From: Candidatus Omnitrophota bacterium
GTDB taxonomy: Bacteria > Omnitrophota > Gorgyraeia > Zapsychrales > Fredricksoniimonadaceae
Assembly (NCBI GenBank): GCA_015233335.1
Contig: JADFXX010000001.1
Location: forward strand, 70,302-134,301
Reading direction: 5' to 3'
Length of the DNA stretch: 64,000 bases
Within the stretch, counting starts at the first letter, position 1. The number at the start of each line of letters is the position of its first letter. The notes below the pieces were generated by a model. That model was not told where the DNA came from. It searched no databases and was given only the letters and a program-made list of their open reading frames with translations. Of the stretch, positions 23,074 through 42,840 are shown piece by piece. The translations under genes and the position numbers were made by a program.

Positions 23074-24146
23074 ATCATTAACAATTCTTTTTTAATGATC
23101 CCATGCTCATCGATGATGGGTTTATCACTTTTCAACCAGCGCTCGGTCCCTAAACCTGCCGTCTGTCCGGTCAAGCACGCCAGATTGGCCAACACCTTTA
23201 GACCCAAAGTTGATTCAAAGCAAGAGCTGATGATCGCTTTTTTCCCCAAACGGTGGGCCTGCTCAATCCAATCCAAGGTTGGAATAATGCCTCCTATAAT
23301 CATAGGCTTTAGAACATACGCACTAACCGCCTCATGATGCCCCAGAGGGGGCTGACATCGTCCCGGAGCATTCACACCGCATGGCATGACAGACAAAGTT
23401 TCATCCAAGGCCACCGGCAGATGCGCCTGCTGATAAAATTGTTCCAGCTGGCTTATATCACTTAAAGGCTCTTCGATAAATTCAATGCTTGCCCCTGTGA
23501 CTAATTCCGAAAAAAGGCAGGCCTCCTTGAGGCTCCATCTGCGGTTGGCATCCAGGCGCAGCCGGCCTTGAGGTGGCAATAAAGCCCGGATATCCGCTAC
23601 TTTTTTAACATCCAAGGCAATATTGCGATCACCCACCTTTAACTTAAAAACCTTGTAACCTTGCTTGATGAACATTTTAACATCCCACATCACCTGATCG
23701 TAGTTGCCCTCAAGCAGGGCCGCGCAAGGCACATCCTCGAGGGAGGTTCCCAGAAACCCGGCCATGCTCAAATCGCAAGCCTTTGCCGCCAGCATCATCA
23801 CAGCAGACTCTACGCCAAATCTCACCGACGGACATAAGTTTAAAATACGCCCCTCACGGCGCAAAAGATTTATTAATATGTCTTTATCCAAAGGAACCTG
23901 CGAATCCATCAGAAAGGAACGGATTTCTGTTAAGTCATGCCGAATGCGGCGCGGGGTCTCGGTGCTTATGCCCATAAGGGGCGCAATCTCACCTGTAGCC
24001 TCAATCCCGTTGAGAGCCTTCAATTTTAAATAAAAACCGCTGCGCTCACCGATGGTATTTGAAGCAAATACGAAAGGACGATGAAAAGGGATGTTATAAG
24101 TTGAAAAATCAACCTGGCAGATAACTAATGGCTGCACAAAAGCCAC
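23070..24146 (-). CDS. menC: o-succinylbenzoate synthase (enolase superfamily)
   Basis: 358 aa; KLKVG...LRLDANRRW...IEFIEEP...ALDE pattern of enolase-superfamily metal ligands. 4-nt overlap with menE. Confidence 0.75.
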   Translation of the reverse strand: MAFVQPLVICQVDFSTYNIPFHRPFVFASNTIGERSGFYLKLKALNGIEATGEIAPLMGISTETPRRIRHDLTEIRSFLMDSQVPLDKDILINLLRREGRILNLCPSVRFGVESAVMMLAAKACDLSMAGFLGTSLEDVPCAALLEGNYDQVMWDVKMFIKQGYKVFKLKVGDRNIALDVKKVADIRALLPPQGRLRLDANRRWSLKEACLFSELVTGASIEFIEEPLSDISQLEQFYQQAHLPVALDETLSVMPCGVNAPGRCQPPLGHHEAVSAYVLKPMIIGGIIPTLDWIEQAHRLGKKAIISSCFESTLGLKVLANLACLTGQTAGLGTERWLKSDKPIIDEHGIIKKELLMI

Positions 24147-25009
24147 CCTATGGAAAACAATACACTATAAACCAAAAGGTACCGGCCCGTCAAAACCAAA
24201 ACCCGGTTGAGACTAACGGCCTGCGCATGTGTCATGACCTCATGAATACAAGGAATAGCCAGAAATCCGGTCAAAGAAGCCACTGCCACTCCTTGATGGT
24301 CATTAGTAATCAAAACTACGGCAAAGGGTATTAAACTGGCCGCAATGATACAAAAAAGGTATTCCTTCATGGCAAAAGAGCGGCCAAAACGCACGGCCAG
24401 TGTTAATTTGCGGGCCTCCCTGTCAGTCTCAATGTCGCGTAAATTATTGACAGCTAAGATAGCCGTTGATAAGAAACCCGGAGCAAGACCTGAAACGATG
24501 ACCGCCCAGTCGACCTCCAAAGACTGAACAAAATAGGTCCCTCCTACCGCCACAGGCCCGAAAAAAATCAGCACAAATAAATCTCCCAGCCCTAAATATC
24601 CTAAAGGCCGCGGTCCCGCCGTATAAAGGATCCCGGAAAGAATGGACGCCGCCGCGATAATAAGGATACACATGCCTGCACGATGGACTAAATAAAGGGA
24701 GGATAAAGCGGCCAATACGAAAAAAAACAGGGATGCCAGCAGAACCGTTCGCGGCCTGATCAAGCCCGACTGAGTCACACGCCGCGGGCCCAGCCGAAGA
24801 GCCGTGTCTGCTCCTTTTTTAAAATCAAAATAATCGTTAGATAAATTAGTCCCGATCTGAATAGACAAAGCAGCTGATAAGGCCATCAGGGCCGAGGGGC
24901 CGTGAAAAAGGCCATTGCCAAAAGCCATGGCTGAACCTATGAAAACAGGAGCGACGGCCGCGGGCAAGGTATTAGGACGAATGGCTAAAAACCATGATGA
25001 AAATTTCAT
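24125..25009 (-). CDS. menA: 1,4-dihydroxy-2-naphthoate polyprenyltransferase
   Basis: UbiA-family polytopic protein with NDYFDFKKGAD and NNLRDIETD motifs. Start moved to the ATG at 25009 (MKFSSWFLAIRP), 1 nt after the menB stop. Confidence 0.85.
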   Translation of the reverse strand: MKFSSWFLAIRPNTLPAAVAPVFIGSAMAFGNGLFHGPSALMALSAALSIQIGTNLSNDYFDFKKGADTALRLGPRRVTQSGLIRPRTVLLASLFFFVLAALSSLYLVHRAGMCILIIAAASILSGILYTAGPRPLGYLGLGDLFVLIFFGPVAVGGTYFVQSLEVDWAVIVSGLAPGFLSTAILAVNNLRDIETDREARKLTLAVRFGRSFAMKEYLFCIIAASLIPFAVVLITNDHQGVAVASLTGFLAIPCIHEVMTHAQAVSLNRVLVLTGRYLLVYSVLFSIGWLLCSH

Positions 25010-25010
25010 A

Positions 25011-25832
25011 TTACGGTCTTTTGGGGAATTTGGAAAAATCCGGTTTGCGTTTTTGCACAAAGGCATCCCTGCCTTCCTGGGCTTCCTGCGTCATATAAAA
25101 TAAAAGTGTGGCATTGCCGGACAATTCCTGCAAACCGGACTGACCGTCACAATCCGCGTTCAAAGCGGATTTAAGGCACCGGATGGCCAGGGGCGAATGC
25201 TGCAGAATTTCCCGGCACCATTGCACAGTCTCCTCTTCCAGTTTTTTATACGGGACAACGGCATTGACCAATCCCATATCCAGTGCCTGCAGCGCACTGT
25301 ACTGGCGGCAAAGAAACCATATCTCCCGGGCTTTTTTCTGACCGACGATACGCGCCATATAACTTGAACCGTAACCTCCGTCGAATGACCCCACCTTAGG
25401 GCCGGTCTGACCAAACACCGCATTATCAGCCGCAATGGACAGATCACAAACCATCTGCAGGATCTGTCCGCCGCCTACCGCGTAACCTGCCACCATCGCG
25501 ATGACCGGTTTGGGGCAAATACGGATATGCCGCTGCAGGTCCAAAACATTCAAACGATGAGTGCCGTCCTGGTCCTTATATCCGGCATCCCCGCGGATAT
25601 GCTGATCCCCGCCTGAGCAAAACGCTTCACGGCCCTCACCTGTCAAAATAATCACACCCACTTTTTCATCATCACGGGCATCCTCGAGGGCATGCATCAT
25701 TTCTTTGACCGTTAAGGGCGTAAAAGCGTTCCGCTTCTGAGGACGATTGATCGTGATCTTAGCAATCCCCTCCATCTTATGGTATTTGATCTCGTCGTAG
25801 GCCCTCACTTCTTCCCAGGAAAATTTCGGCAT
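25011..25832 (-). CDS. menB: 1,4-dihydroxy-2-naphthoyl-CoA synthase
   Basis: 273 aa crotonase-fold protein; [37 protein letters not shown] are classic MenB strings. Confidence 0.95.
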
Positions 25833-28439: not shown

Positions 28440-30623
28440 CTACCAAGTCAAAAATTTAAAAGTTTTGAGACTCACGGCCAGTTCATCCATGTTAATAATA
28501 GGCAAGATTGTTGAGTAATCATCGGTCCATACACGCTGTTTGTCAATCGATTCCGTATCAAGCGGCTGCCAGCCTTCTTTAGAGATCAGTCTAAAGAACC
28601 GCTCGCCATCCCACGTTAAAAGGCACCAGATGGAACGCATGTTAAAGCCCCCGTCCGGCACATCCTTGAAAGCGGCAAAGGCTCCCGTGTCTTGTGCAAT
28701 TTTAACTAATACCGGCTTTAAATTCAAATACCTATTGGTGATATGAAAAACCGCCGCTCCCTGCAAAGCAAGTTTTTTTTCATACTCAAGGATGACATCT
28801 TTATTGACGAGATGTATCGGTATGGCATCTCCGCTGAAAGCATCAATGATCAAAAGATCATACCAGGCATCCGGCATTTTTTCCAATGACAGGCGCGCGT
28901 CTCCTAAAATAATATTAACACTCCCCGGCGCTTTTGCTAAATACCAAAAATACTTCCCGGCTATATCTGAAACATCGCCGTCTAACTCATAATAATCTAT
29001 CGGACAGGACGGTTTGGCATACATGGACAATGTCCCCGTGCCCAAACCCACGACCCCCACCCTTTTAGCCTCAAAAACATCAGCAGTCAATAAACCTCCC
29101 ACGGCTGAAGTCGGGCTGTAATATCCCAAGGGGATAACGCGTTTCTCTTCGTCAATAAATTCAGCGCCATGCAAGGTTGTGCCGTGCACCAATGCCCGAA
29201 CTCCATTCGCTGAATCATAGACCTCATAAATCCCGTAATAATTCCTTTTCTTAATAATAAAATGGACATTTTGCCAGATGGATTCAAGCCAACAAGTCGC
29301 TATAATAATGCCGACCAAAACAGCAATAAAGAATTTCCTCGCTTTGGCCAATCCCCAAAAAGCAAACCAAACCATGCCCCATAAGAGAACAAAAGGCAAA
29401 ACATGATAATCCTTAAAAACATGAGGCCAAACAAAAAAAGCCAATACAACCATTAGAACATAAACGCACAAACGCCAAACAGGCACTTTTCTTAAATGGG
29501 AAGGCATCATCAGAGCGACTAAAAAAAGCCCGACTAAGTATTCTATCAAAGTATTGGAGATCAAAGGAATGATCCAGCTGGTTAAAATCCCGCCTAAAAA
29601 CCCCCCCAAGGAAATCATCACATAAAAGAGGGTCATTTGGCGTTCGGAGGCAGGTTTGGAGAGTATCAACTGATTTTGGGTATACATGCATATAAAAAAC
29701 AAAAAACCGCATAACAAGGCAATAACCATGAGGACCGGCAAGATATGTTTTTGCGATAAAAAATACATCAACGCCTGCAAGCCGATGATGGGTCCGATAA
29801 AGCGAATGATCCATGACGGGCACCACGGATTCTTTTTAAAATTCAGGACAAAAGCCATTAAATAAATCCCCAGAGGAACGACCCATAGCAAGGGGACGGG
29901 TGCGACTTCATAGGTCATGATATTGGTCACCGATAAAAACATCACAACCCCGGCCGCTCCCAGACATAGCCAGCGCAATATTTGTTTATCAGCAACCCAG
30001 CCAAAGGGTGAAACGTCGGCTACATGCTTAAAGGACTCGTCCGGTTTGACCCTCCAACAAGCGATCACGTTAGCAAGCACTAAAATGGCATATAAAAGCC
30101 GCCATATTTGCAACTGCTCTGTGTTTGTCAAAAACTGCTCAAAGAAAAAGGGATAGCTAAAAAGCGCCGCAAAAGACCCCAAATTAGACACCGCGTAAAG
30201 GCCGTAAGGGTTATCCCGCCCTTTTAAGACAGACATCGCCAGCCAGCTTTGGGTCACAAGGCTCATCGTAGAAAGCACAAAAAAAACCGGACCGATCGTC
30301 ATGGTCAGGCGCCAGAATATATCCACCACAAGCGGCAGGGAGGTGCCGTAATGTAAAAAATGGATGTCACGTACGGGAAAAAACAAGAACGGGATAAATA
30401 AAAGCCATAAATGGATTTTTAAATAATGGCGCATCCCCCGGTGCCGCAGGAGCATATGGGCAAAGCAATAGCCAGCCAGCAAAACTGCCTGAAAAAAAAC
30501 AATACATGCCCCCCACACCAGATAGCTGCCGCCGTAACTCGGGAGAAACAATTTCGCGATGATCAATTCAATTTGAAATAATAAAAAAGCGGAAAGAAAA
30601 GTGATAGATATTAAGATCGCCAT
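28440..30623 (-). CDS. membrane-fused spermidine-synthase-like aminopropyltransferase
   Basis: 727 aa. About 450-aa polytopic N-terminal region, then a SpeE-like domain: RVGVVGLGTGT, YYELDGDV, DLLIIDAFSGDAIPIHL. Confidence 0.75.
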   Translation of the reverse strand: MAILISITFLSAFLLFQIELIIAKLFLPSYGGSYLVWGACIVFFQAVLLAGYCFAHMLLRHRGMRHYLKIHLWLLFIPFLFFPVRDIHFLHYGTSLPLVVDIFWRLTMTIGPVFFVLSTMSLVTQSWLAMSVLKGRDNPYGLYAVSNLGSFAALFSYPFFFEQFLTNTEQLQIWRLLYAILVLANVIACWRVKPDESFKHVADVSPFGWVADKQILRWLCLGAAGVVMFLSVTNIMTYEVAPVPLLWVVPLGIYLMAFVLNFKKNPWCPSWIIRFIGPIIGLQALMYFLSQKHILPVLMVIALLCGFLFFICMYTQNQLILSKPASERQMTLFYVMISLGGFLGGILTSWIIPLISNTLIEYLVGLFLVALMMPSHLRKVPVWRLCVYVLMVVLAFFVWPHVFKDYHVLPFVLLWGMVWFAFWGLAKARKFFIAVLVGIIIATCWLESIWQNVHFIIKKRNYYGIYEVYDSANGVRALVHGTTLHGAEFIDEEKRVIPLGYYSPTSAVGGLLTADVFEAKRVGVVGLGTGTLSMYAKPSCPIDYYELDGDVSDIAGKYFWYLAKAPGSVNIILGDARLSLEKMPDAWYDLLIIDAFSGDAIPIHLVNKDVILEYEKKLALQGAAVFHITNRYLNLKPVLVKIAQDTGAFAAFKDVPDGGFNMRSIWCLLTWDGERFFRLISKEGWQPLDTESIDKQRVWTDDYSTILPIINMDELAVSLKTFKFLTW

Positions 30624-30710
30624 GGGGACATATTAAATGTAAAAAATTCCTTTGTCATTGAAAAAAAAATATCATTGCGAACCCTAAAGCACACTGATAG
30701 AATCCCGCAA

Positions 30711-31862
30711 ATGAAGATTTCCAAACAGTTTAAAAAATATCCATACCGCACCAGAGTCATCAAGAAAATCGAAAGCATCTCACCTGAAGAGTTTGGCCGG
30801 ATATTCCCCCCTGTGAGCGAAGGATACCAGTTCTTCAAAACACTGGATGAATCGAAATTCACACAGTTCCTTTTTTATTATATCCTTGTTTATGACCATA
30901 AACAATTAGTCAGTGTTGCCCCCTGTTTTTCTGTCAACTATTCACTGGATACCAGTATGAGCGGCCCCCTTCGCCGGATTTCCAATGCGATCAAAAAAAT
31001 ATCCCCTCATCTGTTTAGCATCAAAGCTTTGGTCTGCGGCATACCCATGGGACAGGGGCAGATCGGTCTGGCCCGTCAATCAAGGGACATCCTGCAAGCC
31101 GTCCAACAACGCATGGAAGAGTTGGCGCACGAGATCCACGCTCCTGTCATTGCCTTTAAGGATTTTGATCGCTCCTATGATGAACTTTTTGATCCCCTGA
31201 TCAAAGATGGATTCATAAAGATCGACAGCCTGCCCATGACCCGTTTAAACTTGAGCTTCTCAAGTTTCGAAGGCTATTTGAAAACCCTCAGTAGCGCCAC
31301 CCGTTATGATTTTCGAAGAAAACTAAAAAAAGCCGCAACAGTTAAAATTGAATCCTCCGTGGTAAGCTCTCTGGATGAAGAGGCCCTCGATCAAGTCTAC
31401 TCTCTTTACCTGCAGACCGTGACTGCGCATGAAACGGGCTTTGAAATCCTACCAAAAGATTTTTTTAGATTGATCTCTCAAAACATGCCCCATGAGGCCA
31501 AATTCTTTCTCTACAGGATCAACTCAAGACTGGCGGCCTTTGTTTTTTGTTTAGCCTCAAACGGGGTTTTACTGGATTATTACCTGGGACTGGACTACTC
31601 CCAAGCTCACGAATATCACTTGTATTTTTTCAAATTTAAGGACATCATGGATTGGTGTCTCGCTCATGGTATTAAAACATACGAGATGGGCGATACCGGA
31701 TACGAGCCTAAGCGCAGGTTAGGATTTGATTTTGTGCCGATGTCCCTTTTCGTCAAAATGCGTCCAAGGCCCTTGAGACCTGTATTAAAGATTTTAAGAG
31801 CACTGCTAAAGTTTGATAACTTTGACCCTGAGATTAAACGATGGAAAAAATCATTAAAATAA
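30711..31862 (+). CDS. GNAT-fold FemAB-like (DUF482-type) acyltransferase
   Basis: About 383 aa from the ATG at 30711 (the ORF track starts at TTG 30675). The C-terminal YHLYFFKFKDIMDWCLAHGIKTYEMGDTGYEPKRRLGF resembles the FemAB-like/DUF482 family as I recall it. The family call is tentative. Confidence 0.5.
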   Translation: MKISKQFKKYPYRTRVIKKIESISPEEFGRIFPPVSEGYQFFKTLDESKFTQFLFYYILVYDHKQLVSVAPCFSVNYSLDTSMSGPLRRISNAIKKISPHLFSIKALVCGIPMGQGQIGLARQSRDILQAVQQRMEELAHEIHAPVIAFKDFDRSYDELFDPLIKDGFIKIDSLPMTRLNLSFSSFEGYLKTLSSATRYDFRRKLKKAATVKIESSVVSSLDEEALDQVYSLYLQTVTAHETGFEILPKDFFRLISQNMPHEAKFFLYRINSRLAAFVFCLASNGVLLDYYLGLDYSQAHEYHLYFFKFKDIMDWCLAHGIKTYEMGDTGYEPKRRLGFDFVPMSLFVKMRPRPLRPVLKILRALLKFDNFDPEIKRWKKSLK

Positions 31863-32272
31863 GACAGTTGCCGCTTAAGATCTTCCTTTTGATCGTGGCC
31901 AATGACTTAATCGACACATCGGCCCAACTCTTAATGAAAAAAGGACTGGGCATTTGTGAGCTAAACAGCATCCGTTCTTTCTTTGATCATCTTTTAAATT
32001 TTGGCAATCCCCTTATTTTTCTGTTCTGGGCGGGGCTGATCATCTATCTTTTAAATTTCTTTATATGGATGAAAGTCTTATCCAAGGTAGATCTAAGTGT
32101 CGCCCTCCCTTTGGCCAGCAGCAGCTATATTCTCATTCCGATCGCGGCTATCTTCTTTCTGCATGAGCTTGTAAAACCCCTGCGCTGGCTGGGACTTGCT
32201 TTGATCGTGCTTGGCATATACTTTATTTCAGGAAGCAAGCCCTCAAAAGACCAAGGAGCCGTGCATGAGTAA
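31841..32272 (+). CDS. half-size EamA/DMT (ArnE/ArnF-like) 4-TM transporter subunit
   Basis: 143 aa with four hydrophobic helices. Paired with a second similar gene, overlapping it by 8 nt. Confidence 0.55.
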   Translation: MEKIIKIRQLPLKIFLLIVANDLIDTSAQLLMKKGLGICELNSIRSFFDHLLNFGNPLIFLFWAGLIIYLLNFFIWMKVLSKVDLSVALPLASSSYILIPIAAIFFLHELVKPLRWLGLALIVLGIYFISGSKPSKDQGAVHE

Positions 32273-32636
32273 GATCATTCTCCTTGTTCTCATCGCTGAA
32301 TTCTGGATTATCATAGGACAGGTCTGTTTTAAAAAAAGCGCTGACCGTTTGAATGCCCGGGGGAAAGGCCCAAAAACATGGGTCTTACATTTGCTTGGGT
32401 CCATATCGCGCACTCCGACGATTTGGATAGGCGCTGCTGCGATGTTCGTCGGAATGCTGTTTTGGTTTGCCGCTTTAAGTTCCGGCGAACTTAGTTATGT
32501 CTATCTGCTGGGAAGCATCCAATACATTATAGCCCTTGTTGCCGCACACTTCTTTCTAAACGAAAAAATCAACAAATCCAAATTGATCGGGACCCTGCTG
32601 ATTACGTTAGGAATTATTTTGACGATCGCCAGTTAA
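32265..32636 (+). CDS. half-size EamA/DMT (ArnE/ArnF-like) 4-TM transporter subunit
   Basis: About 123 aa from the ATG at 32265 (MSKIILLVLIAEFW...), four hydrophobic helices. Partner of 31841..32272. Confidence 0.55.
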   Translation: MSKIILLVLIAEFWIIIGQVCFKKSADRLNARGKGPKTWVLHLLGSISRTPTIWIGAAAMFVGMLFWFAALSSGELSYVYLLGSIQYIIALVAAHFFLNEKINKSKLIGTLLITLGIILTIAS

Positions 32637-32657
32637 TCAACTCGCTGGGGATGACAA

Positions 32658-33128
32658 TCAAAATTTCCGAAGACAACGAACGTAGGCTTCAGTCGGCTTT
32701 GTGTCGAATACGGGGATTGTACTGGAATAGTGAAGGGTACCGTCAAGAAAATTCTGGGACGAAGCGAATTGAGCGTTATTTTGTGTTGAAGACCAGTAGT
32801 TTGACGACATGACCAATTCACGACGACGAGAGTAAAGCAGGCCATTCAATTCAGTTTCTGTGGGCAAATACCAGCCGGAAGAAAAGTCTCCAAATTTTAA
32901 GTCCCGGCAATAAGCCACGGCGCTCTCCCATTTCATGGGTCCGGCATCTCTGGGTGTCAGCATATAATCAAAGCCGGCATATAACGCGCCCCCCTCACAG
33001 GTTTGTCCTATAAGCACTGGAGTTGATTGGGTCCCTGTACAAGGATCAGCCGCATACAAATTTTCTACACTGCCCGTAAAGAAACCAAGAGATAAGGCAA
33101 AAATGACAAACAGCTTAGAACATGTCAT
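32658..33128 (-). CDS. secreted DUF1566 (Lcl C-terminal-like) protein
   Basis: Start set at the ATG at 33128 (MTCSKLFVIFALSLGFF, preceded by AGAGGGGGA). W.SAVAYC..L....SGWYLPTETEL and C-terminal YVRCLR fit the DUF1566 pattern. Confidence 0.55.
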   Translation of the reverse strand: MTCSKLFVIFALSLGFFTGSVENLYAADPCTGTQSTPVLIGQTCEGGALYAGFDYMLTPRDAGPMKWESAVAYCRDLKFGDFSSGWYLPTETELNGLLYSRRRELVMSSNYWSSTQNNAQFASSQNFLDGTLHYSSTIPVFDTKPTEAYVRCLRKF

Positions 33129-33150
33129 TAAGATCCCCCTCTTTTGATGA

Positions 33151-34527
33151 TTAGGCCCCCAAAGCTTTTTGCAAAGCCTCTTCAAAAAGCATGACTGACA
33201 GATCGATTTCATCCTCGGTGATATAAAGTGACGGGGCCAAAGTAAACACATTTTTATAATACCCGCCGATATCCAGCACTAATCCGCGTTTTTTCCCCCC
33301 GGCTGTCAACTGGGCCCCTAAGCCGATATTCATGATCCGGTCCGTCAGATCGCGATCAGGCGTAAACCCGTCCTTTTGACATATTTCAATACGCAGCGCT
33401 AACCCCAAACCGTCTACCTGACCGATAGATGGATATTTTTTCTGAAGATTCTTAAGCTGTTTTAGAAAATACGCCCCTCTTTTAGGCACATCCACATCAA
33501 AATTTGAATCTTCGATCAAGTCCATCACGGCCAATCCAGCGGCAGTGCCAAGGGGATTGGAAGAAAATGTGGAATGGGTCATCCCCGGAGGAAAAACTTC
33601 CGGTGAAATAAGCTCTTCTTTGGCCCAGATCCCGGAAATAGGGTTAAGACCGTTGGTCAGGGCTTTACCGAAAACAATAATGTCCGGCACCACCCCGAAA
33701 TGTTCGATGGACCATAACTTTCCGGTGCGGTAAAAGCCCATCTGGATCTCATCCGCGACAAATAAGACATGATATTTATCCAGGGTCTTTTTCAGTTCTT
33801 TAAAATAATCCATAGGAGGGACAATATATCCTCCGGTCGCCTGCACGGGCTCGACAAAAAAAGCGCCATATTCGCAGTTTTTATTTTTGGGATTGACCAA
33901 GGAATAATATTCAGATTCAAACAACTTCTCAAATCTCCTTAAGCAGGCAAGGCCGCAACTTTCCCGTGACTTGCCTTCAGGACAGCGGAAGCAATAGGGA
34001 TAAGGGACAAAATGGGCCCGATCGGAAAAATGGCCATAATGTTCCCGATAGCGGTAACTGGAAGTGATGGCCGTGGCGGCAAGGGTGCGGCCATGATAGC
34101 CGCCCATAAAGGAGAACATCGGGATTTTGCCCGTGTGATTACGCACAACTTTAATAGCATCTTCAATGGCCTGTGCTCCCCCGACATTAAAATGCACCCG
34201 GCCTTTGACACCAAATTTTTTCTCGATATCCTGGGAAATCTTAGCCGCTAAGCGTATTTTCTCTTCATGCAAATATTGGCAGGCCAACTGCGGGAGGGTA
34301 TCGATCTGTTTTTTTAAAACATCATTCAAGCGCCGGTTCTTATAGCCAAAATTGGCCGCGGAATACCACATCTGTAAATCGACATACTGGCGCCCTTGAG
34401 AATCGTACAAATAAATCCCGTCCGATTCACGAAAAATATTTAATTGTTTGGCATAATGGACGGTGTCTCCCCAAGAGCAATACTTCGATTCCATCTCAAG
34501 TAATTCTTTGTCATCCATGGGTTGCAC
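33151..34527 (-). CDS. class III (omega-type) PLP aminotransferase
   Basis: 458 aa; GGAQAIEDAIK, GGYHGRT, EPVQATGGYIVPP, FVADEIQMGFYRTG, and FGKALTNG (Schiff-base Lys). Confidence 0.9.
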   Translation of the reverse strand: MQPMDDKELLEMESKYCSWGDTVHYAKQLNIFRESDGIYLYDSQGRQYVDLQMWYSAANFGYKNRRLNDVLKKQIDTLPQLACQYLHEEKIRLAAKISQDIEKKFGVKGRVHFNVGGAQAIEDAIKVVRNHTGKIPMFSFMGGYHGRTLAATAITSSYRYREHYGHFSDRAHFVPYPYCFRCPEGKSRESCGLACLRRFEKLFESEYYSLVNPKNKNCEYGAFFVEPVQATGGYIVPPMDYFKELKKTLDKYHVLFVADEIQMGFYRTGKLWSIEHFGVVPDIIVFGKALTNGLNPISGIWAKEELISPEVFPPGMTHSTFSSNPLGTAAGLAVMDLIEDSNFDVDVPKRGAYFLKQLKNLQKKYPSIGQVDGLGLALRIEICQKDGFTPDRDLTDRIMNIGLGAQLTAGGKKRGLVLDIGGYYKNVFTLAPSLYITEDEIDLSVMLFEEALQKALGA

Positions 34528-34540
34528 GTCCTATTGATAT

Positions 34541-35269
34541 TTAACGGCTGTGACGGCCGGAGTTGATCGCTTCCTGAAAATAATTATAAACGTCTCCTAA
34601 GTCCTTATAAGGGATGCAGGGCAGCTCTTCCTTGTTCATAAAACGCAATAAATTATCCTTGGCAAAAACAATATCCGAAACGCGCGCGGGGCAAAAATCC
34701 GAACGGCCGTCTCCAACAAAAACGATCAGCTTATTTTCCGTTTTGTCTTTAGTCAAATGGATCTTCTTGCAATGGGCGCAAGTCAGGCAAAAAGGATTGT
34801 CATAAGGGAAAGACGGGATGATATGGTCACGATAGAATCTCAGGGAGTTGCCGTAGACTTTCAGGTCCTTGATCCTGTGGTATTCTAAGATCTTCTCGAT
34901 GATGCAGGTAAAGTTATCACTCAAGATCACCGGCTTAATGCCTTCTTGGACCAGCAAAGACAGTAGCTGATGAAAATGAGGATCCAGCTCGACTTTTTTA
35001 ATAAAATTAAACAGAGCGCTTCTCGTGACCCGCACGTTCTTCAACTGCCCTTCCAAGCATTCTTTAGTTCCGATTGTACCCTCCAACCATGCCTTTTCCA
35101 AGGCCATCCAATTCTTATTGATAGAAAAACGCCGAATAACATCGTCTAAAACATCAGATATGGTCATGGTATGATCAAAATCAAAAAACACACGGCAATT
35201 AGACAACACGATGGGCGATTTAGTGTGGAGTTTTGTTTCCATCTGATGAAGACGATTAACAAAAGGCAT
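34541..35269 (-). CDS. HAD-superfamily phosphatase, MtnX/PSPase-like subfamily
   Basis: 242 aa; FFDFDHTMT (DxDxT), VILSDN, GDGRSD, plus the Cys motif CLTCAHCK that I associate with MtnX-type HADs. Confidence 0.7.
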   Translation of the reverse strand: MPFVNRLHQMETKLHTKSPIVLSNCRVFFDFDHTMTISDVLDDVIRRFSINKNWMALEKAWLEGTIGTKECLEGQLKNVRVTRSALFNFIKKVELDPHFHQLLSLLVQEGIKPVILSDNFTCIIEKILEYHRIKDLKVYGNSLRFYRDHIIPSFPYDNPFCLTCAHCKKIHLTKDKTENKLIVFVGDGRSDFCPARVSDIVFAKDNLLRFMNKEELPCIPYKDLGDVYNYFQEAINSGRHSR

Positions 35270-35274
35270 ATTGT

Positions 35275-36162
35275 TTATGAGACCAGGGGTTTACCGGAAA
35301 AAAAGCGCTGCATATGCATAGCTACCGTATTACGCTCCTGATCAGCGGTTATGATATGGTAAGAATTATGCAGAAGCACGAGTTCTTTACGGGAAGACCT
35401 CACCCTGTTATAAATAAACTGGGAATTACGCTCGCTGCTCATATCATCATGCTTGGCCTGGATCAGTTGTATTGGCGTGGAAATATCATCTAGACAGCCG
35501 TTTAAATGTTTAACCAATTTTTGCAGTTGATACAATAAGGTCAATGGGAAAAAAGGATACCCGTATTGGGCCACCTGCTCCAAGTTATCCAGTTTCGCAT
35601 GGCTGTAAAATTCATGGATGCGCCTGCGGACCGCTTCATTCTTGATACCGTAAGGCGGTTCTTCCTTAAAATAAAAGAAATATTTAAGCGGCGTATTGTA
35701 GGCCAAAGGCAGCAGGAACCGGTACCATGGCGAATTCCATCCGTCATAGAAAAGCGTGGGAGAAAGACAGCTGACACCGGCTATCTCATTTTTGAATTCA
35801 TGGGATAACACCAGAGCTAATAAAGCCCCCATAGAAAGGCCGCTGACATAAATTTGCTTGAACTGCCCGCGGATCTGAAGATAAGATTGACGGACCGTCT
35901 GATAAAAATCCTGCCATTGACTCATTTGGAGAATATGGATCGGCGCCCCATGATTCGCCAAACGCGGGCAATAGACCGCATATCCCTGACGGTTCAGGTA
36001 ATTGGCCAAAAACCGCATTTCATGAGGCGTTCCCGTCATACCATGGATGAGAATAATCGCCTCTCCATTTTGGCCCGGCAACTCAAAGCCATTGTCGGGA
36101 AGATCCGACTTGCCCTTAGCCTTAAATAGATTCTTTAAATTAGCAGAAAACTTAACCGCCAT
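35275..36162 (-). CDS. alpha/beta-hydrolase (esterase/lysophospholipase-like)
   Basis: 295 aa; HGMTGTP oxyanion region, nucleophile elbow GLSMGA, and a C-terminal His in SYHII. Confidence 0.8.
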   Translation of the reverse strand: MAVKFSANLKNLFKAKGKSDLPDNGFELPGQNGEAIILIHGMTGTPHEMRFLANYLNRQGYAVYCPRLANHGAPIHILQMSQWQDFYQTVRQSYLQIRGQFKQIYVSGLSMGALLALVLSHEFKNEIAGVSCLSPTLFYDGWNSPWYRFLLPLAYNTPLKYFFYFKEEPPYGIKNEAVRRRIHEFYSHAKLDNLEQVAQYGYPFFPLTLLYQLQKLVKHLNGCLDDISTPIQLIQAKHDDMSSERNSQFIYNRVRSSRKELVLLHNSYHIITADQERNTVAMHMQRFFSGKPLVS

Positions 36163-36167
36163 ATCTT

Positions 36168-36416
36168 TTATTTCCCTTCTTTTTGGGAGGCGATATAATC
36201 CACAATATTCTTGACGGTCCGGGCCTCATAGAGAGCCGCATCAGGGATCTTCAATTCAAATTTTTCTTCCAGCTCAAAAGCAACTTCCACGGACCCGAAA
36301 GAATCCAGTCCTAAATCCTCAACTAATTTAGACTCTAAGGTGATCCGTCCTGCATCCATGGTCAATTGCTTGGCCAAAATCTCTTTGACGATCGTCTCAA
36401 TCTCGCTATAAATCAT
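36168..36416 (-). CDS. acyl carrier protein (dedicated)
   Basis: 82 aa with the phosphopantetheine site LGLDSFGSVE. Confidence 0.9.
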   Translation of the reverse strand: MIYSEIETIVKEILAKQLTMDAGRITLESKLVEDLGLDSFGSVEVAFELEEKFELKIPDAALYEARTVKNIVDYIASQKEGK

Positions 36417-36421
36417 AGGTT

Positions 36422-37669
36422 TTAAACTCCCCTAAAATCCGAAAAAACAATACAAGCATTACAATTACCGAATCCAAATGAATTGGATAAAACATGGTTC
36501 AATTTCTTAGGACGACCCTCGAGCGGTACATAATCCAAATCGCACTCGGGGTCTTTATGCTTATAATTGATCGTAGGCGCAATAAACTGATCCTTGATCG
36601 ATAATGCACACACCACCGCTTCAATGCCTCCCGCGGCCCCAAGGCTGTGGCCTATCATGGATTTAGTCGATGAAACCGGGATCTGATAAGCCTTTTCGCC
36701 AAATACCTGCTTAATAGCCTTGGTTTCCGCACGGTCATTGGCCACAGTCGAGGTGGCATGGGCATTGATATAATCAACCCGATCGGCACTGAGTCCGGCA
36801 TCCTTCAAGGCATCCGACATGCCGCGTGCGGCATCGTCTCCGCTGGCATCAGGCATAACCATGTGACGTGCACCGGAATTACTGGCATACCCGGTGATTT
36901 CCGCATAAATCGGCGCGTTCCGTTGGCGTGCATGTTCCAGTTCTTCTAAAACAAGTCCGCCGCCGCCTTCACTTAAGACAAAGCCATCCCTTTCTAAATC
37001 AAAAGGTCTTGAAGCTTCCTGCGGCACATCATTTTTTTTTGAAAGAACCCTTAAAGCGCTATACGCCCCGAAATTCAAACGCGTCAGGGGAGCTTCAACC
37101 CCTCCTGTCACACATATATCCATGTCACCCCACTGCACCTTACGAAAAGCCTCGCCAATGGCATGGCTTGCGGAAGCACAAGCGGTTGAAATGACCATGT
37201 TCGGCCCCAAAAAACCATACCGGATCGCAATGTGACTTGACACCGCATTCGGTGAAATTCTGGGCACCGAAGAAGGATTGATACGATTCGCCCCGCGTTC
37301 CAGGATCGCCACCATCTGCTCTTCATGGAACATCATTCCGCCTAATCCGGAACCGATGATGACCCCTATCCTCTGTTTATCTTCACGGTCTAAATCTAAC
37401 CGGCTGTCTGCGACGGCCATTTGGGAGCAGGCCAATCCAAAATGCACAAACCTGTCAACCTTTTTAGCCACCTCTGCAGGCATATATTGAGAAGGATCAA
37501 AATCTTTGACCTCCCCGGCGATTCGCGCATCAAAAACCTCAGCGTCAAAGCAGGTGATCTTATCTATGCCGGAGCGTCCCTCTTTGTTGGCCTGCCAAAA
37601 TTGTTCACGACCGATACCGTTACAGGCAACCACCCCCAAACCGGTAATCACAACGCGCCGTTTCTTCAT
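36422..37669 (-). CDS. beta-ketoacyl-ACP synthase I/II family
   Basis: Start set at the ATG at 37669 (MKKRRVVITGLGVV). Catalytic triad contexts ACASASHAIGEA, NAHATST and GHSLGAAGG. Confidence 0.9.
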   Translation of the reverse strand: MKKRRVVITGLGVVACNGIGREQFWQANKEGRSGIDKITCFDAEVFDARIAGEVKDFDPSQYMPAEVAKKVDRFVHFGLACSQMAVADSRLDLDREDKQRIGVIIGSGLGGMMFHEEQMVAILERGANRINPSSVPRISPNAVSSHIAIRYGFLGPNMVISTACASASHAIGEAFRKVQWGDMDICVTGGVEAPLTRLNFGAYSALRVLSKKNDVPQEASRPFDLERDGFVLSEGGGGLVLEELEHARQRNAPIYAEITGYASNSGARHMVMPDASGDDAARGMSDALKDAGLSADRVDYINAHATSTVANDRAETKAIKQVFGEKAYQIPVSSTKSMIGHSLGAAGGIEAVVCALSIKDQFIAPTINYKHKDPECDLDYVPLEGRPKKLNHVLSNSFGFGNCNACIVFSDFRGV

Positions 37670-37814
37670 TATAGCAAAATCCTTAACCTTGTTAATGATT
37701 AATTTAAATAAATGATTCTGACTGTTTTTCAACCCTAACTACTTAAAGTTAATAGGGTTCATACTATACCACAGTGCTAAAAAAACAATCTTTTTTTTTA
37801 CATAAATACTTTAA

Positions 37815-38237
37815 TCAAAAATTAAACTTTGCCCCTTCAGGAGTTAATGTTGTTCCTCCTTCAATCTGGCTTTCCCCTCCCCCCTTATTGAGGGACGCTC
37901 TCAAGTTTTCCTTCCGGACCCATCGCTTCATCTGGTCTTCACTTAAGGTCTTGCTCAACTTAAGATATTCATCACGTCTTAATGCCTCCAATGTGCTTTT
38001 TAAAACAGCATGGTTCACAATCAGGTCCCCTTGCATTTCCTGTAAAATCGCATCACGTTTGGACATATATTCTTTAATAATGGGCCTTACGGCATCTGCC
38101 TGTGCATCAGTCATATTAAGCTCAGTTGTCATTCGTCTGACACTGTCCTCTGCGTTTAAAGTCATATCCTGAGCATAAACAGACACCCCCAACACTAAAA
38201 ATACCCCTAAAATAGAACCGGCCAGTTGAATATTCAT
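37815..38237 (-). CDS. periplasmic LTXXQ-motif (Spy/CpxP-like) protein
   Basis: 140 aa; signal peptide ILGVFLVLGVSVYAQ. LNMTDAQADAV and LSEDQMKRW are LTXXQ-like repeats. Confidence 0.5.
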   Translation of the reverse strand: MNIQLAGSILGVFLVLGVSVYAQDMTLNAEDSVRRMTTELNMTDAQADAVRPIIKEYMSKRDAILQEMQGDLIVNHAVLKSTLEALRRDEYLKLSKTLSEDQMKRWVRKENLRASLNKGGGESQIEGGTTLTPEGAKFNF

Positions 38238-39703: not shown

Positions 39704-40837
39704 ATGCATTCCCAAGATAAAAAAGTTTTTATCCTCGCCTCTATCGAAGAAGTGTCTATTTTGCGTAAATTCGCGATCCTCTTTCTGATCTCCTCCATTA
39801 TACCGATGTTCCTGCTTTATTATATTTATCTTTATAAAACAAGGCTCGGGTTTATGGCCATGATCATGATGGTTTTGGGCGTTTTTGTGGGATATTTTTC
39901 TATCCGTTCGTTATTAATTAAAGCGACCGATATCGCCCGGGAAAATCGTCGTGCTATCGAACCTTTTTTAAGCCCCCAGATCATCAAAGAAATCAGCCAG
40001 GGAGAAAACGAATTAGTCGTCTTAAAACACACCTTCAGCGCCCTGACCAAACAATTGGCGACGACGATCACCGAATTAAAGAATAAAAATGATGAACTTC
40101 TGGCCCTAGATCAACTCAAGGATGACTTTGTCAACAACGTCTCCCATGAGTTTCGCCTGCCGTTGTCGATCATTCAGGAAAGCATCCGTCAGATCACCGA
40201 AGGCATGTTCGGGCAGATCAATGAGGCCCAACAAAAATATTTAAACATGTCTCTTCGCAACATCGACCGCTTAAAGACACTCATAGATATAATGCTCGAC
40301 ATCTCCAAAATTGAAAAGGGCAAATTAGAACTCTTCAAGAAAAATATGGATTTAAGAGACGTGATCAAAGAAGTCGTCTCTGACCTGTCCCAAAAAATTG
40401 AAAAGAAAGGCCTTAAACTCAAGCTTGAGCTGCCGGCGCAACCTGTTGAAATTGTCGCCGATCGTGATAAAATCATCCAGGTTTTGATCAACCTAGTCGG
40501 CAATGCCTGTAAGTTCACCCAGCAAGGCTCCATTGAGATATCTGCGCGTGAAAATGAGGATTCTATTGAGTGCACGGTCACAGATTCGGGAATCGGGATT
40601 AGCTCCAAAGACCTGCCCCATCTTTTTTCAAAATTTCATCAGATCGCCGCTCCCCAGGAAAAAGGGACAGGGCTGGGGTTAGTCATTGCCAAACATATTA
40701 TCGAGCTGCATCATGGACAGATCTATGTCGAAAGTCAAGAAAAGATAGGCACCAAATTTACTTTTACGCTGCCGAAAAATACGGCGGCCCCTAACGGAAA
40801 GGCAGTGGACAATGAAAAAAATATTAATCGTGGATGA
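39704..40837 (+). CDS. membrane sensor histidine kinase
   Basis: 377 aa; two N-terminal TM helices, H-box VSHEFRLPL, HATPase boxes NLVGNACKF, DSGIGI, GTGLGLVIAKH. Confidence 0.9.
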   Translation: MHSQDKKVFILASIEEVSILRKFAILFLISSIIPMFLLYYIYLYKTRLGFMAMIMMVLGVFVGYFSIRSLLIKATDIARENRRAIEPFLSPQIIKEISQGENELVVLKHTFSALTKQLATTITELKNKNDELLALDQLKDDFVNNVSHEFRLPLSIIQESIRQITEGMFGQINEAQQKYLNMSLRNIDRLKTLIDIMLDISKIEKGKLELFKKNMDLRDVIKEVVSDLSQKIEKKGLKLKLELPAQPVEIVADRDKIIQVLINLVGNACKFTQQGSIEISARENEDSIECTVTDSGIGISSKDLPHLFSKFHQIAAPQEKGTGLGLVIAKHIIELHHGQIYVESQEKIGTKFTFTLPKNTAAPNGKAVDNEKNINRG

Positions 40838-41192
40838 TGATGTGGATATCGTCGATCTGGTTGAAAACAGGCTAAAAAAGAACAATTATGAGGTCACGTT
40901 CACCAATGACGGTGATAACGGGTATAGAAAGGCCATTGAACAAAAACCTGACCTGATCATTATGGATGTCATGATGCCTAATATGCACGGGGGCGAGGCG
41001 GTCAAGCTTTTAAAAGCAAATGATATCACCAAGAATATCCCGGTCCTTTTCTTTACAGCCATGAATTCCTATTTACCTAAAGGCGCCGAGCTAGACCAGA
41101 TCAATGTTAACGGTCAACTGTATCCGGCGATTACCAAACCTTTTGAACCGAACAAATTATTAGCCGCGATCAAATCCCTCTTGGGGGAATGA
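40812..41192 (+). CDS. single-domain response regulator
   Basis: 126 aa; KILIVDDD...DLIIMDVMMPNMHG...TKPF. Overlaps the kinase gene by 26 nt. Confidence 0.9.
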   Translation: MKKILIVDDDVDIVDLVENRLKKNNYEVTFTNDGDNGYRKAIEQKPDLIIMDVMMPNMHGGEAVKLLKANDITKNIPVLFFTAMNSYLPKGAELDQINVNGQLYPAITKPFEPNKLLAAIKSLLGE

Positions 41193-41195
41193 TCA

Positions 41196-42704
41196 TCACC
41201 CCCCGGTATGGCACTCCGAACAGTTTGTCGTCTTCCAGGATTCGTCCCCGTCAAAAGGATGCTGGAATGGCAGTCCATCAGAATCTTTCTGCACAGCTGT
41301 CCCGCTGCCTTGTTGTGTGATGATATGGCATGATGTGCATTTGCGGGATATCCCCTCTCCTGTCTTGGTCTTATGCTCATCATCATGACAACGGAAACAA
41401 CCTAAAGAAATCATATGTCCGATATTATCCGGATATGCGTCCCAGCGGGACTTCATCTCAGGAAAGAAATTCATCCGGTAGATCAAAGAAACGGCTTTGA
41501 TGGCCTCTTCAACTTTGTCCTTATGCTCCCCATAATACGCAGCCTGTTTCTTGGCATAATACTCAGTTAACCCCAAACGTATCTTTTCTAAAGCTTGATC
41601 CACAGAGAGATATTCTTTGGAAAGGACCTCGACGGCTTTGGCCTTGATCATGGGAATAGACGGGCTGATACGCTCCTCGGCCAACGCCCGGTTGATCGAA
41701 ACATCAGGAGCTTCAAAGCGGTGGGTTGGTCGGTTGTGGCAATCCATACAGTCCATTTTTCTGATCTTGTTTTGAGGCGGAGCTGTATTTTTATAAGGCG
41801 ATCCCTTGGTCGTATAAATCCTGGCGACCCCCGCCTTATTGATGGCCTTGATCCAGCTGATCTTCTGGCGCTTCGCATCTTCAGGCACGTAATAAATCTC
41901 ATCACCGTAATACATATGGGCGTGAATACCGGATTCGCCGTTTTGTCCGCCCCCGATACGGATCAGCATCTTGATATTCCATGGCAGAGTTTTGCTTGGG
42001 TCATCAGGGTAATAAATCTTATCCAACTGTATGGCATTAAAAGCTTTCCCCGGCCAATGACATTCTTCGCAGGTCTCCTTGGCGGGACGCAAGGTTTCAA
42101 CAGGAGCGGGAGTGGGCCTTGAGTAGGTCCCTTTAATCGCCATAAAAAGCATTTTAACGCCGGCCATTTTGTAATGCACGTACCAACCCACTCCGGAGCC
42201 GATATGGCATTCCACACATTTGACCTGGGCATGGGGCGACTGGGTATAGGCCGTATATTCCGGATTCATGACCTGATGGCATGTGACCCCGCAAAAACGC
42301 TCTGATTCCGTATAATTATAAGCTTTATAACAACCTATTGCGGTCATGATCAAAACAATAGCGGTTCCGACCATAAAAATAAGAATGGCATTCTGGTGGG
42401 TCGACAGAGAAAGGTCGATAACGATGAGTTTATGCGTGCCTCCGTGAGCGCCTTTAAGGATCCGACGCCGCGAAACCCAAGCCCCCCATGGAATCAATAT
42501 CAGGCCGACAATAAGAAACGGCGGCAGGAAAACATATGTAATAAGGCCAAGATAAACGCTGTGGGCGGAAGAAAAGAAATCAATGCAAAATAAAAAAAGT
42601 TCACAGCAAAGAATAAATACGGAAAGCCCTGCCCCTATATAAGTTGTATTGTTATAAAAATGATCGGGAAATCTCTGTTTTCTTTTTTTGGGAAGGTTAT
42701 TCAT
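41196..42704 (-). CDS. inner-membrane multihaem cytochrome c, NapC/NirT-related, ImcH-like
   Basis: 502 aa with three N-terminal TM helices. Six CxxCH motifs (CVECH, CEECH, CMDCH, CFRCH, CTSCH, CSECH) plus one CX3CH (CGVTCH, nt 42276-42293). Confidence 0.75.
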   Translation of the reverse strand: MNNLPKKRKQRFPDHFYNNTTYIGAGLSVFILCCELFLFCIDFFSSAHSVYLGLITYVFLPPFLIVGLILIPWGAWVSRRRILKGAHGGTHKLIVIDLSLSTHQNAILIFMVGTAIVLIMTAIGCYKAYNYTESERFCGVTCHQVMNPEYTAYTQSPHAQVKCVECHIGSGVGWYVHYKMAGVKMLFMAIKGTYSRPTPAPVETLRPAKETCEECHWPGKAFNAIQLDKIYYPDDPSKTLPWNIKMLIRIGGGQNGESGIHAHMYYGDEIYYVPEDAKRQKISWIKAINKAGVARIYTTKGSPYKNTAPPQNKIRKMDCMDCHNRPTHRFEAPDVSINRALAEERISPSIPMIKAKAVEVLSKEYLSVDQALEKIRLGLTEYYAKKQAAYYGEHKDKVEEAIKAVSLIYRMNFFPEMKSRWDAYPDNIGHMISLGCFRCHDDEHKTKTGEGISRKCTSCHIITQQGSGTAVQKDSDGLPFQHPFDGDESWKTTNCSECHTGG

Positions 42705-42840
42705 TTTGATAATTGTAACATAAAAAACAAGATGTTACAGTCATAACCCAAAAATCAAACTAAACTCCAATCCCCTCAAACCGAGCGGCCTTTCATATTC
42801 TGCAAAAACGTATTTATTTAGCGTTCAGAGAGCCACTTGC

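Follow-up and report, generated by a model that had tools for sequence, protein, structure and literature searches.

The window analysed here, a stretch of 64,000 nucleotides from a Candidatus Omnitrophota bacterium (contig JADFXX010000001.1 of assembly GCA_015233335.1, positions 70,302 to 134,301), contains a compact cluster of eight genes that spans 7 kb. Five of these lie on the minus strand and encode, in order, a FabF-type beta-ketoacyl-acyl carrier protein synthase (KAS) of 415 residues (36422-37669), assigned by its TIGR03150 profile score and by N- and C-terminal ketoacyl-synt domains in Pfam; an acyl carrier protein (ACP) of 82 residues (36168-36416; PF00550); an alpha/beta hydrolase of 295 residues (35275-36162; Pfam Hydrolase_4), predicted to be cytoplasmic and of the monoacylglycerol lipase or Est30 carboxylesterase type; an MtnX-like HAD-IB phosphatase of 242 residues (34541-35269; TIGR01489); and an enzyme of about 456 residues with the fold of the class III (omega-type) pyridoxal 5'-phosphate (PLP)-dependent aminotransferases (33151-34527; PF00202, 264 bits). 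The gaps between these genes are 5, 5, 5 and 13 nt. Converging on this operon from the plus strand is a trio that comprises a gene for a Fem-like protein of 383 residues (30711-31862; FemAB_like/Acetyltransf_6, COG3146/PF04339/PF13480) and two genes for half-size membrane proteins of the EamA family of drug/metabolite transporters (DMT; 31841-32272 and 32211-32636, both PF00892), the true start of the second probably being the ATG near 32265. There is a 22-nt overlap between the Fem-like gene and the first EamA gene, and the open reading frames (ORFs) of the EamA pair also overlap.

The original prediction for this DNA, made from its letters alone, placed these genes at or very near the coordinates given by ORF listing and profile searches, with gaps of 5-13 nt between those of the operon. 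Every gene that it named is real, and what it overlooked is an ORF for a small secreted Lcl_C-domain protein (32658-33251, minus strand) that lies between the aminotransferase gene and the EamA pair. A motif check found the catalytic motifs intact in the KAS, ACP, hydrolase, HAD phosphatase and aminotransferase. The HAD phosphatase and the aminotransferase are 100% identical to proteins encoded on a 212-kb contig of a Candidatus Omnitrophica (Omnitrophota) genome assembled from a metagenome. No hydrophobic segments were detected in the soluble enzymes, and the EamA halves, with three to four such segments in the first and four in the second, are the only membrane proteins of the cluster, which suggests that synthesis would take place in the cytoplasm and that its product would need to be exported or flipped.

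Conservation of the gene set across genomes

A scan of species-representative genomes with an alignment of the HAD phosphatase identified 340 genomes with a relative, of which the best 80 were fetched and their neighbouring genes identified by tblastn with the window proteins and by de novo clustering of neighbouring ORFs. Among these best 80 of 340, the HAD and aminotransferase genes were adjacent in nearly all, forming a near-universal and often overlapping core around which the hydrolase, KAS/ACP, Fem-like and EamA genes are found in no fewer than 12 different orders and orientations. Component counts were restricted to loci where 7 kb or more could be seen to either side of the HAD gene, 41 in all, and are lower bounds owing to crude ORF calling. 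The aminotransferase gene was adjacent to the HAD gene at 38 of these 41 loci, while the EamA pair was present at 27, the hydrolase at 25, the Fem-like gene at 18 and the KAS at 15. In most loci the hydrolase gene is directly upstream of the HAD gene, and at the loci examined the Fem-like gene always adjoins the EamA pair.

The best 80 of the 340 genomes belong mostly to Omnitrophota, with 12 from Verrucomicrobiota (Opitutae, Opitutaceae and Chthoniobacterales); records named "uncultured Planctomycetales/Planctomycetia", all from one binning project, were counted as Omnitrophota by sequence identity, a grouping that we assume. Single metagenome-assembled genomes (MAGs) with a relative of the HAD phosphatase are labelled Betaproteobacteria, Casimicrobiaceae, Terriglobales, Deltaproteobacteria, Thermodesulfobacteriota and Planctomycetota. 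Relatives at 76-83% HAD identity have the same layout as the window, and at 63% HAD identity (L001/L002) the block KAS-ACP-hydrolase-HAD-aminotransferase is intact amid quite different genes. At greater distance, the order becomes aminotransferase-hydrolase-HAD-Fem-EamA-EamA (L058, L059 and L070), or KAS-ACP-aminotransferase is found divergent from hydrolase-HAD-Fem-EamA (L052, L065 and L078). All eight genes are colinear, as ACP-KAS-hydrolase-HAD-aminotransferase-EamA-EamA-Fem, in L090/L091 (positions 6733-13440 of L090), which come from an abundant freshwater organism seen in 49 blocks of the collection. At a further locus (P0276), genes for an OmpR-type regulator and a HAMP kinase precede hydrolase-HAD-aminotransferase-Fem-EamA-EamA, and the MAG labelled Betaproteobacteria (L079) carries another rearranged form of the cluster. 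The same set of genes thus occurs in dozens of species-level genomes and in many arrangements, and is not a product of chance; with so many different orders, the linkage is not explicable by shared ancestry of one arrangement. Conservation of the neighbourhood, which the original prediction had set as a check, holds far beyond close relatives and extends to several phyla, and the cluster is widespread through whole lineages, probably by vertical descent, unlike the typically patchy clusters of secondary metabolism. Taken together, comparison of these sequences supports the view that the five-gene operon and the convergent Fem-like/EamA trio constitute one conserved functional unit.

The partners of the HAD-aminotransferase core differ in other lineages. 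In a large syntenic group of Omnitrophota (L024, L026, L031, L036, L038, L040 and others), the core is followed by an arginase-fold protein, a DegT aminotransferase and an EamA pair. The arginase-fold partner (family c6) is very divergent: its PDB sequence match, to arginase, is insignificant (E 0.86) and its Pfam match borderline, although its arginase-like metal-ligand motifs are conserved. PagL-like, LpxL-like and PIG-L genes are found near these variant clusters. At L003/L004 (10001-15413), the core is followed by two ATP-grasp ligases and a radical S-adenosylmethionine enzyme resembling lysine-2,3-aminomutase, an arrangement that may represent a beta-lysine-type tailoring variant, and elsewhere (L064, L072, L081 and L086-88) the core is beside a PaaK-like adenylating ligase, sometimes together with an M20 deacylase. 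Pairing of the core with three unrelated kinds of amide-forming enzyme, namely Fem-like, ATP-grasp and PaaK-like, fits an amine that would later be acylated or aminoacylated.

Predicted activities of the encoded proteins

The HAD phosphatase scores 96.5 bits against the subfamily model TIGR01489, above the cut-off of 81.55, and falls well short of the two MtnX equivalogs (63.6 bits for a cut-off of 303 and 73.5 for a cut-off of 292) and of serB (36.7 bits for a cut-off of 144); none of mtnW, mtnK or mtnA neighbours its gene. It contains the motifs DFDHT and GDGRSD. In an AlphaFold model with a predicted local distance difference test (pLDDT) score of 85, its best Foldseek match is MtnX (2FEA; template modelling (TM) score 0.75-0.82), followed by phosphoserine phosphatases. 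Residues D30, D32, S117, D118, K168, D187 and D191 are invariant in the alignment, as is a Cys/His cluster in the cap formed by C71, C161, C164, H166, C167 and C193. The protein is thus modelled as a small-molecule phosphomonoesterase of the MtnX/phosphoserine phosphatase type with a predicted intact active site. The hydrolase, whose nucleophile motif is GLSMG, finds its best PDB sequence matches among thermostable monoacylglycerol lipases and carboxylesterases (E ~1e-26).

The aminotransferase belongs to the gamma-aminobutyric acid (GABA)/ornithine transaminase-racemase branch of class III and contains the motifs DEIQ and FGK (FGK288). It reaches no NCBIfam equivalog cut-off, all 69 matches falling below theirs in a comparison that covered the class III equivalogs ArgD, GabT, BioA, EctB/Dat, PbfA and the racemases; its best curated model, PRK05769, gives 293 bits where the cut-off is 552. 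The closest solved relatives are Pyrococcus amino-acid racemases (alanine/serine and broad-specificity) and GABA/ornithine transaminases, at about 200 bits. It is the most conserved product of the cluster, being 65-88% identical across phyla versus 40-50% for the HAD phosphatase in the same loci, and is equally conserved with or without KAS and ACP. Readings of the cluster as a biotin (BioH/BioA-like), ectoine (EctB/EctA-like) or phosphonate (PbfA/PhnX-like) pathway were rejected, the defining partner genes being absent and the equivalog scores below cut-off.

The KAS carries the triad Cys163/His304/His340 and scores 551 bits against the FabF equivalog TIGR03150, above the cut-off of 493.75. 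The ACP reaches 67.8 bits against the AcpP equivalog TIGR00517, just under the cut-off of 70.45, is identical to Escherichia coli AcpP at 31 of 78 positions (~40%), and has the serine motif LGLDSF (DSF) instead of the housekeeping GADSLD (DSLD). In the cluster, the KAS gene is followed by the ACP gene and then by those for the hydrolase, phosphatase and aminotransferase, and none of fabD, fabG or fabH is among the annotated neighbours in the window, so that the fabD-fabG-acpP-fabF context is missing. Scanning metagenomes with the KAS gave 76 loci, about 50 of them at 67% identity or more; all of these ~50 have the context small secreted protein-KAS-ACP-hydrolase-HAD, with the ACP gene directly following the cluster KAS in every case. 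KAS relatives at 38-50% identity in the same scan sit outside the cluster, and for two of them an ACP with 52-57% identity to E. coli AcpP is encoded upstream. Opitutaceae MAGs (L069 and L073) encode a KAS of 67-70% identity and an ACP of 51% identity beside their own cluster copy, and other Verrucomicrobiota (Opitutae and Chthoniobacterales) have a KAS of another type, which is 31-37% identical, reaches none of the FabF cut-offs and is accompanied by an unusual ACP of its own. On the basis of the gene order, the divergence of the ACP and the cluster-bound close relatives of the KAS, these two proteins look like a pair dedicated to the cluster rather than housekeeping fab gene products, in agreement with the specialised pair that the original prediction had seen in this stand-alone KAS and ACP.

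The Fem-like protein has no phmmer match to any PDB chain, scores far below the cut-offs of the FemX and PEP-CTERM FemAB models of NCBIfam, and matches only PF04339 and PF13480 in Pfam, the DUF2156 domain and fused flippase of MprF being absent. Its AlphaFold model (pLDDT 86) is that of a soluble protein with tandem GCN5-related N-acetyltransferase (GNAT) domains. The top ~25 PDB matches of this model in Foldseek are all aminoacyl-tRNA-dependent transferases, including FemX, Sbb17/Sba18, FemA and the synthase domains of MprF and other aminoacyl-phosphatidylglycerol (aaPG) synthases, while tandem GNATs that use acyl-coenzyme A (CoA) rank lower. FemX is the best match (E 2.5e-13, TM 0.53-0.6, identity 13-14%), Sbb17 gives a TM of 0.56-0.72, and the MprF synthases 5VRV, 4V34, 4V36, 6LV0, 7DUW and 9GOE follow at E ~1e-10 and TM 0.44-0.6. 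A motif check did not find the Q/RxxGxG/A CoA-loop motif in the protein. COG3146/PF13480 proteins have been taken as aminoacyl-tRNA ligases in the argolaphos cluster (PMC8976061). The structural model therefore makes the Fem-like protein better read as a putative aminoacyl-tRNA-dependent aminoacyl transferase than as an acyl-CoA- or acyl-ACP-dependent acyltransferase, and the acyltransferase activity assigned to it by the original prediction is not supported by the Foldseek matches.

EamA-family proteins are classically metabolite exporters. The best NCBIfam matches of both EamA halves are ArnF and ArnE, at under half of the cut-offs of 99 and 92 bits: the first half scores 48 against ArnF and 39.9 against ArnE, and the second 32.9 and 25.8. 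The pair shares the architecture of ArnE/ArnF, namely two adjacent half-size DMT proteins of ~110-130 residues with four transmembrane segments. Of the ArnEF-like transporter pair proposed earlier, the two adjacent half-size EamA proteins are borne out, whereas the ArnE/ArnF cut-offs are missed by far. The halves are also similar in size to four-helix small multidrug resistance (SMR) transporters, which one account (PMC9574504) describes as carrying guanidinium, polyamines, cationic drugs or a cationic glycolipid.

Genes that flank the cluster

A gene for a polytopic protein of 727 residues (28440-30623, minus strand) is divergent from the Fem-like gene across an 87-nt gap. The protein has ~13-15 hydrophobic segments in its first 440 residues, matches the fused major facilitator superfamily (MFS)/spermidine synthase subfamily NF037959 weakly and over residues 436-635 only (49 bits, cut-off 40), scores 25 bits against a polyamine aminopropyltransferase equivalog with a cut-off of 304, and has no Pfam match even at E<=1. 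Only the closest relatives (L006, L007 and L011-13) have its gene, which is missing from L008, L015 and L089, where the rest of the cluster is kept, as well as from all distant cluster loci. This absence rules it out as a member of the cluster, and the spermidine-synthase-like partner named in the original prediction is dropped accordingly; the accompanying idea of a polyamine-bearing product has lost its basis, as the key gene is restricted to the closest relatives.

The ORF of the Lcl_C-domain protein overlaps the 3' end of the aminotransferase gene by 101 nt in its long form, so that the real start is probably M42 (~33128); it was rejected as a member of the cluster, since in relatives its place is taken by a TPR protein or left empty. 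Directly upstream of the KAS gene, here and in essentially all close relatives, is a gene for a secreted protein of 140 residues with a signal-peptide-like N-terminus (37815-38237, minus strand), which is a tentative part of the cluster. The protein has two LTxxQ-like motifs and was rejected as CpxP/Spy-like, the Pfam LTXXQ match being insignificant (E 0.11); in an unrelated locus, an LTXXQ/Metal_resist-like protein follows the cluster. A scan for promoters and terminators gave site counts only modestly above those of shuffled sequence. Its best promoter-like site (TTAACA-16-TATAAT with an extended TG, 37668-37695, minus strand) has a -10 hexamer that ends directly before the ATG of the KAS gene and is therefore uninformative, being either spurious or a hint of an unusual or leaderless start.

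The flanking genes are otherwise ordinary, the small secreted protein being accompanied on that side by a CPA2 antiporter and by a histidine kinase with a receiver-only response regulator (39704-41192, plus strand, NCBIfam assignments), which are listed as tentative parts of the cluster and possible regulators. In the unrelated loci L028, L042, L049, L061 and L062, kinase and regulator genes are directly upstream of hydrolase-HAD-aminotransferase. Further along, positions 41196-53794 are dense in multihaem cytochrome c genes, including one for a 927-residue cytochrome fused to a cytochrome b561-like domain, and also encode NrfD, a 4Fe-4S protein, TatC and a 694-residue protein without a family match; judged by these genes, the region looks like an extracytoplasmic electron-transfer module. 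On the other side of the cluster, a menaquinone run on the minus strand (21727-25832) consists of a menE-like AMP-binding enzyme, menC, menA and menB, followed by a HIT protein and xseA, and is syntenic with relatives. A megasynthase of 2465 residues resembling type I polyketide or fatty acid synthases (4045-11442, minus strand) contains ketosynthase, acyltransferase, ACP, ketoreductase, dehydratase and 4HBT thioesterase-like domains. Divergent from it is a gene for a protein of 1210 residues with a methyltransferase domain (11617-15249, plus strand), and beyond it on the minus strand are a GAF histidine kinase (1898-4048) and a GAF-HD protein (328-1515).

Proposed function and rival explanations

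We tentatively propose that an amine-forming module feeds a split MprF-like module for aminoacylation and flipping, which would remodel the cell envelope, a reading that we regard as possible while short of probable. The first module would consist of the alpha/beta hydrolase, the HAD phosphatase and the class III aminotransferase, preceded by the dedicated KAS and ACP in the lineage of the window, and the second, for transfer and export, of the soluble tandem-GNAT transferase of FemX/MprF fold and the half-size EamA pair. Aminotransferase and phosphatase act in succession in SerC/SerB, HisC/HisB and NtdA/NtdB. In the cluster, the two enzymes may likewise act one after the other to convert a small phosphorylated carbonyl compound into an amino alcohol or amino acid, which would be the simplest reading of a universal, often overlapping core whose aminotransferase is conserved with or without KAS and ACP. 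The KAS and ACP may supply a dedicated acyl chain, probably a 3-oxo chain, there being no reductase or dehydratase in the cluster, and the esterase-type hydrolase may off-load this chain or transfer it onto the amine or alcohol. The Fem-like enzyme would then add an amino acid from aminoacyl-tRNA, and the EamA pair would carry the resulting cationic compound across the inner membrane. Taken together, this would amount to a split MprF system of synthase, flippase and esterase that is fed by its own substrate-building enzymes and remodels the envelope, possibly under two-component control.

A tRNA-dependent synthase, a flippase and an esterase or hydrolase in one operon are a known layout for lipid aminoacylation (PMC6103681). 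The systems of MprF and other aaPG synthases with operon hydrolases (AhyD, VirJ and PesT) share with the cluster the tandem-GNAT fold class, a membrane translocator and the operon esterase/hydrolase, and a role in envelope charge is plausible for both. In MprF, however, a DUF2156 domain is fused to a large flippase, whereas the cluster encodes a separate soluble PF04339/PF13480 transferase and a half-size EamA pair. The cluster also differs from MprF in coming with an aminotransferase, a phosphatase, a KAS and an ACP of its own, a set that suggests a self-built acceptor rather than phosphatidylglycerol. The cluster thus appears to be a new assembly of parts from known families that would act like MprF while standing outside the MprF family, since domain architecture, sequence family and translocator all differ. 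FemX/FemAB and the natural-product synthases (Sbb17/Sba18, DhpH/DhpK-type and AlpF/AlpO, AlpO also being a COG3146 protein) provide the best structural matches to the Fem-like protein, but identity to them is only 12-14% and the cluster has neither a peptidoglycan-precursor nor an antibiotic-scaffold context. SerC/SerB, HisC/HisB-N and NtdA/NtdB share with the cluster the adjacent, often overlapping aminotransferase and HAD phosphatase, the HAD protein being of the phosphoserine phosphatase/MtnX structural type; they differ in that none of them is known to use a class III aminotransferase, and the pair in the cluster reaches no equivalog model. Synthesis of lipopeptides of the iturin/mycosubtilin type includes an amine-transferase step on a beta-ketoacyl-ACP. 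The cluster similarly places a KAS, whose product is a beta-ketoacyl thioester, beside a class III-type aminotransferase and lacks a reductase or dehydratase, but its proteins are free-standing, there is no nonribosomal peptide synthetase, and the aminotransferase is equally conserved without KAS and ACP. We found no description of this combination of genes in the literature searched, in line with the original prediction, which did not recognise it as a described pathway. A narrower form of our proposal is that the cluster represents an unrecognised lipid-aminoacylation system of the Planctomycetes-Verrucomicrobia-Chlamydiae (PVC) group and other Gram-negative bacteria, in which a FemX-type transferase and a heterodimeric half-size DMT flippase would form a split analogue of MprF acting on a new amino-lipid, for which the linked aminotransferase, HAD phosphatase, esterase, KAS and ACP would make the head group and acyl chain; this form is doubtful and more speculative than the general one.

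Several observations weigh against the proposed coupling of the two modules. Many Omnitrophota lineages, as in the group with the arginase-fold partner, have the HAD and aminotransferase genes without the KAS, ACP, hydrolase and Fem-like genes, and this persistence of the core indicates that the acyl part is not essential to its reaction. The Fem-EamA-EamA trio is also found free-standing (L169 and L170), which indicates that the two modules can work separately. In L170 (9001-13372) the trio is followed 2 nt later by a gene for an 807-residue AsmA/YhdP/DUF748-like protein, whose family has been linked to the transport of lipids to the outer membrane; no second AsmA-like neighbour of the trio was found, L170 being the sole case, and such a protein was rejected as a regular partner. 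Instead of a transaminase, the aminotransferase-fold enzyme may be a racemase or a lyase. The likeness of the modelled Fem-like fold to FemX and MprF is moderate (TM 0.45-0.6) and no proof of tRNA dependence, and the EamA halves fall far short of the ArnE/ArnF cut-offs. The two-component link is suggestive only.

The proposed envelope function has to be weighed against four other readings of the same genes and against their being unrelated. The cluster may instead make a small, water-soluble secreted metabolite, the phosphatase and aminotransferase yielding an amino alcohol or unusual amino acid, the KAS and ACP a short beta-keto or beta-amino unit and the Fem-like enzyme a peptide bond from aminoacyl-tRNA, with EamA proteins that are plain DMT exporters. 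Such a pathway would be analogous to those for phosphonopeptides, streptothricin-type compounds and pacidamycin, and would suit the small-molecule type of the HAD phosphatase, the classical role of the EamA family in metabolite export, and the variants with ATP-grasp or PaaK-like enzymes, which resemble small-molecule tailoring. The model of the Fem-like protein also matches Sbb17/Sba18, which are peptide synthases acting on a small amine, as well as it does MprF, and COG3146/PF13480 enzymes occur in the small-molecule cluster for argolaphos (PMC8976061). Against it stand the KAS, which at 551 bits is very close to long-chain FabF and above the equivalog cut-off, the resemblance of the hydrolase to monoacylglycerol lipases, and a distribution that is wide and probably vertical, all of which leave a soluble product somewhat unlikely in our view. 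An Arn-like modification of glycans or lipid A, in which an amine unit on polyprenyl-phosphate would be flipped by the EamA pair and moved to lipopolysaccharide or another envelope glycan, is less easily defended. Like the cluster, the Arn pathway has a pair of half-size DMT proteins encoded by two genes, an aminotransferase that installs an amine, and a possible link to a two-component system; ArnF and ArnE are the best matches of both EamA halves, a DegT (ArnB-type) aminotransferase adjoins the EamA pair in several Omnitrophota lineages with PagL-like, LpxL-like and PIG-L genes nearby, and PMT_2 (ArnT-like) proteins are encoded a few genes away in L006 and at the P0276 locus. The aminotransferase of the cluster, however, is class III whereas ArnB is of the DegT type, and ArnA, ArnC, ArnD and ArnT are absent from the cluster. 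None of ArnA, ArnB, ArnC, ArnD or ArnT is among the annotated neighbours in the window, the DegT aminotransferase occurring only in other lineages, and no ArnC- or ArnT-type transferase is a conserved partner or near the cluster in the window. With ArnE/ArnF scores so far below the cut-offs, and with lipid A genes that come from one syntenic Omnitrophota lineage and so count as a single observation, we judge this reading improbable.

Little more than a slight chance attaches to the view that the HAD phosphatase and the PLP enzyme simply supply an amino acid, for example serine from phosphoserine, maybe racemised to a D-amino acid, and that the other genes are loosely linked users of it. Phosphoserine phosphatases are the next-best structural matches of the HAD protein after MtnX, and among proteins of solved structure the PLP enzyme is closest to alanine/serine and broad-specificity racemases; the serB score of 36.7 bits against a cut-off of 144 argues otherwise, and the tight and repeatedly reshuffled linkage with the hydrolase, KAS/ACP, Fem-like gene and EamA pair would be left unexplained. 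A polyamine-bearing or N-acylated lipid made through a 727-residue membrane aminopropyltransferase, as the original prediction had it, is very improbable: the divergent position of that gene, 87 nt from the Fem-like gene, and the NF037959 match above its cut-off speak for it, but the protein is without a Pfam match and its gene is confined to the closest relatives and absent from L008, L015, L089 and all distant ones. Hardly credible, finally, is the notion that the KAS and ACP are housekeeping genes of fatty-acid synthesis with unrelated neighbours. The KAS does exceed the FabF equivalog cut-off, and the block in L001 sits among housekeeping genes on one strand. The KAS-then-ACP order, the lack of fabD, fabG and fabH nearby, the divergent ACP and the exclusive cluster context of the close KAS relatives nevertheless led us, from the 64 kb of this genome and the loci compared with it, to reject a housekeeping identity, as did the recruitment to the cluster of a second KAS type (31-37% identity) with its own ACP in Opitutae and Chthoniobacterales and the retention of the gene set in many orders.

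If the proposed amine-forming and MprF-like modules do operate together, they would add to MprF a second route, of modular design, for the tRNA-dependent aminoacylation of the envelope. A function suggested earlier for COG3146 was invalidated (PMC3223725). The proposal would give a function to this large family (COG3146/PF04339) and to a highly conserved orphan class III aminotransferase, and the compactness of the cluster, which spans 7 kb and forms one eight-gene operon in L090, makes it directly testable by heterologous expression. Omnitrophota and Verrucomicrobiota are abundant in freshwater, groundwater and soil and have barely been cultured. In these two phyla, the cluster would mark a new class of amine-bearing lipid or metabolite.

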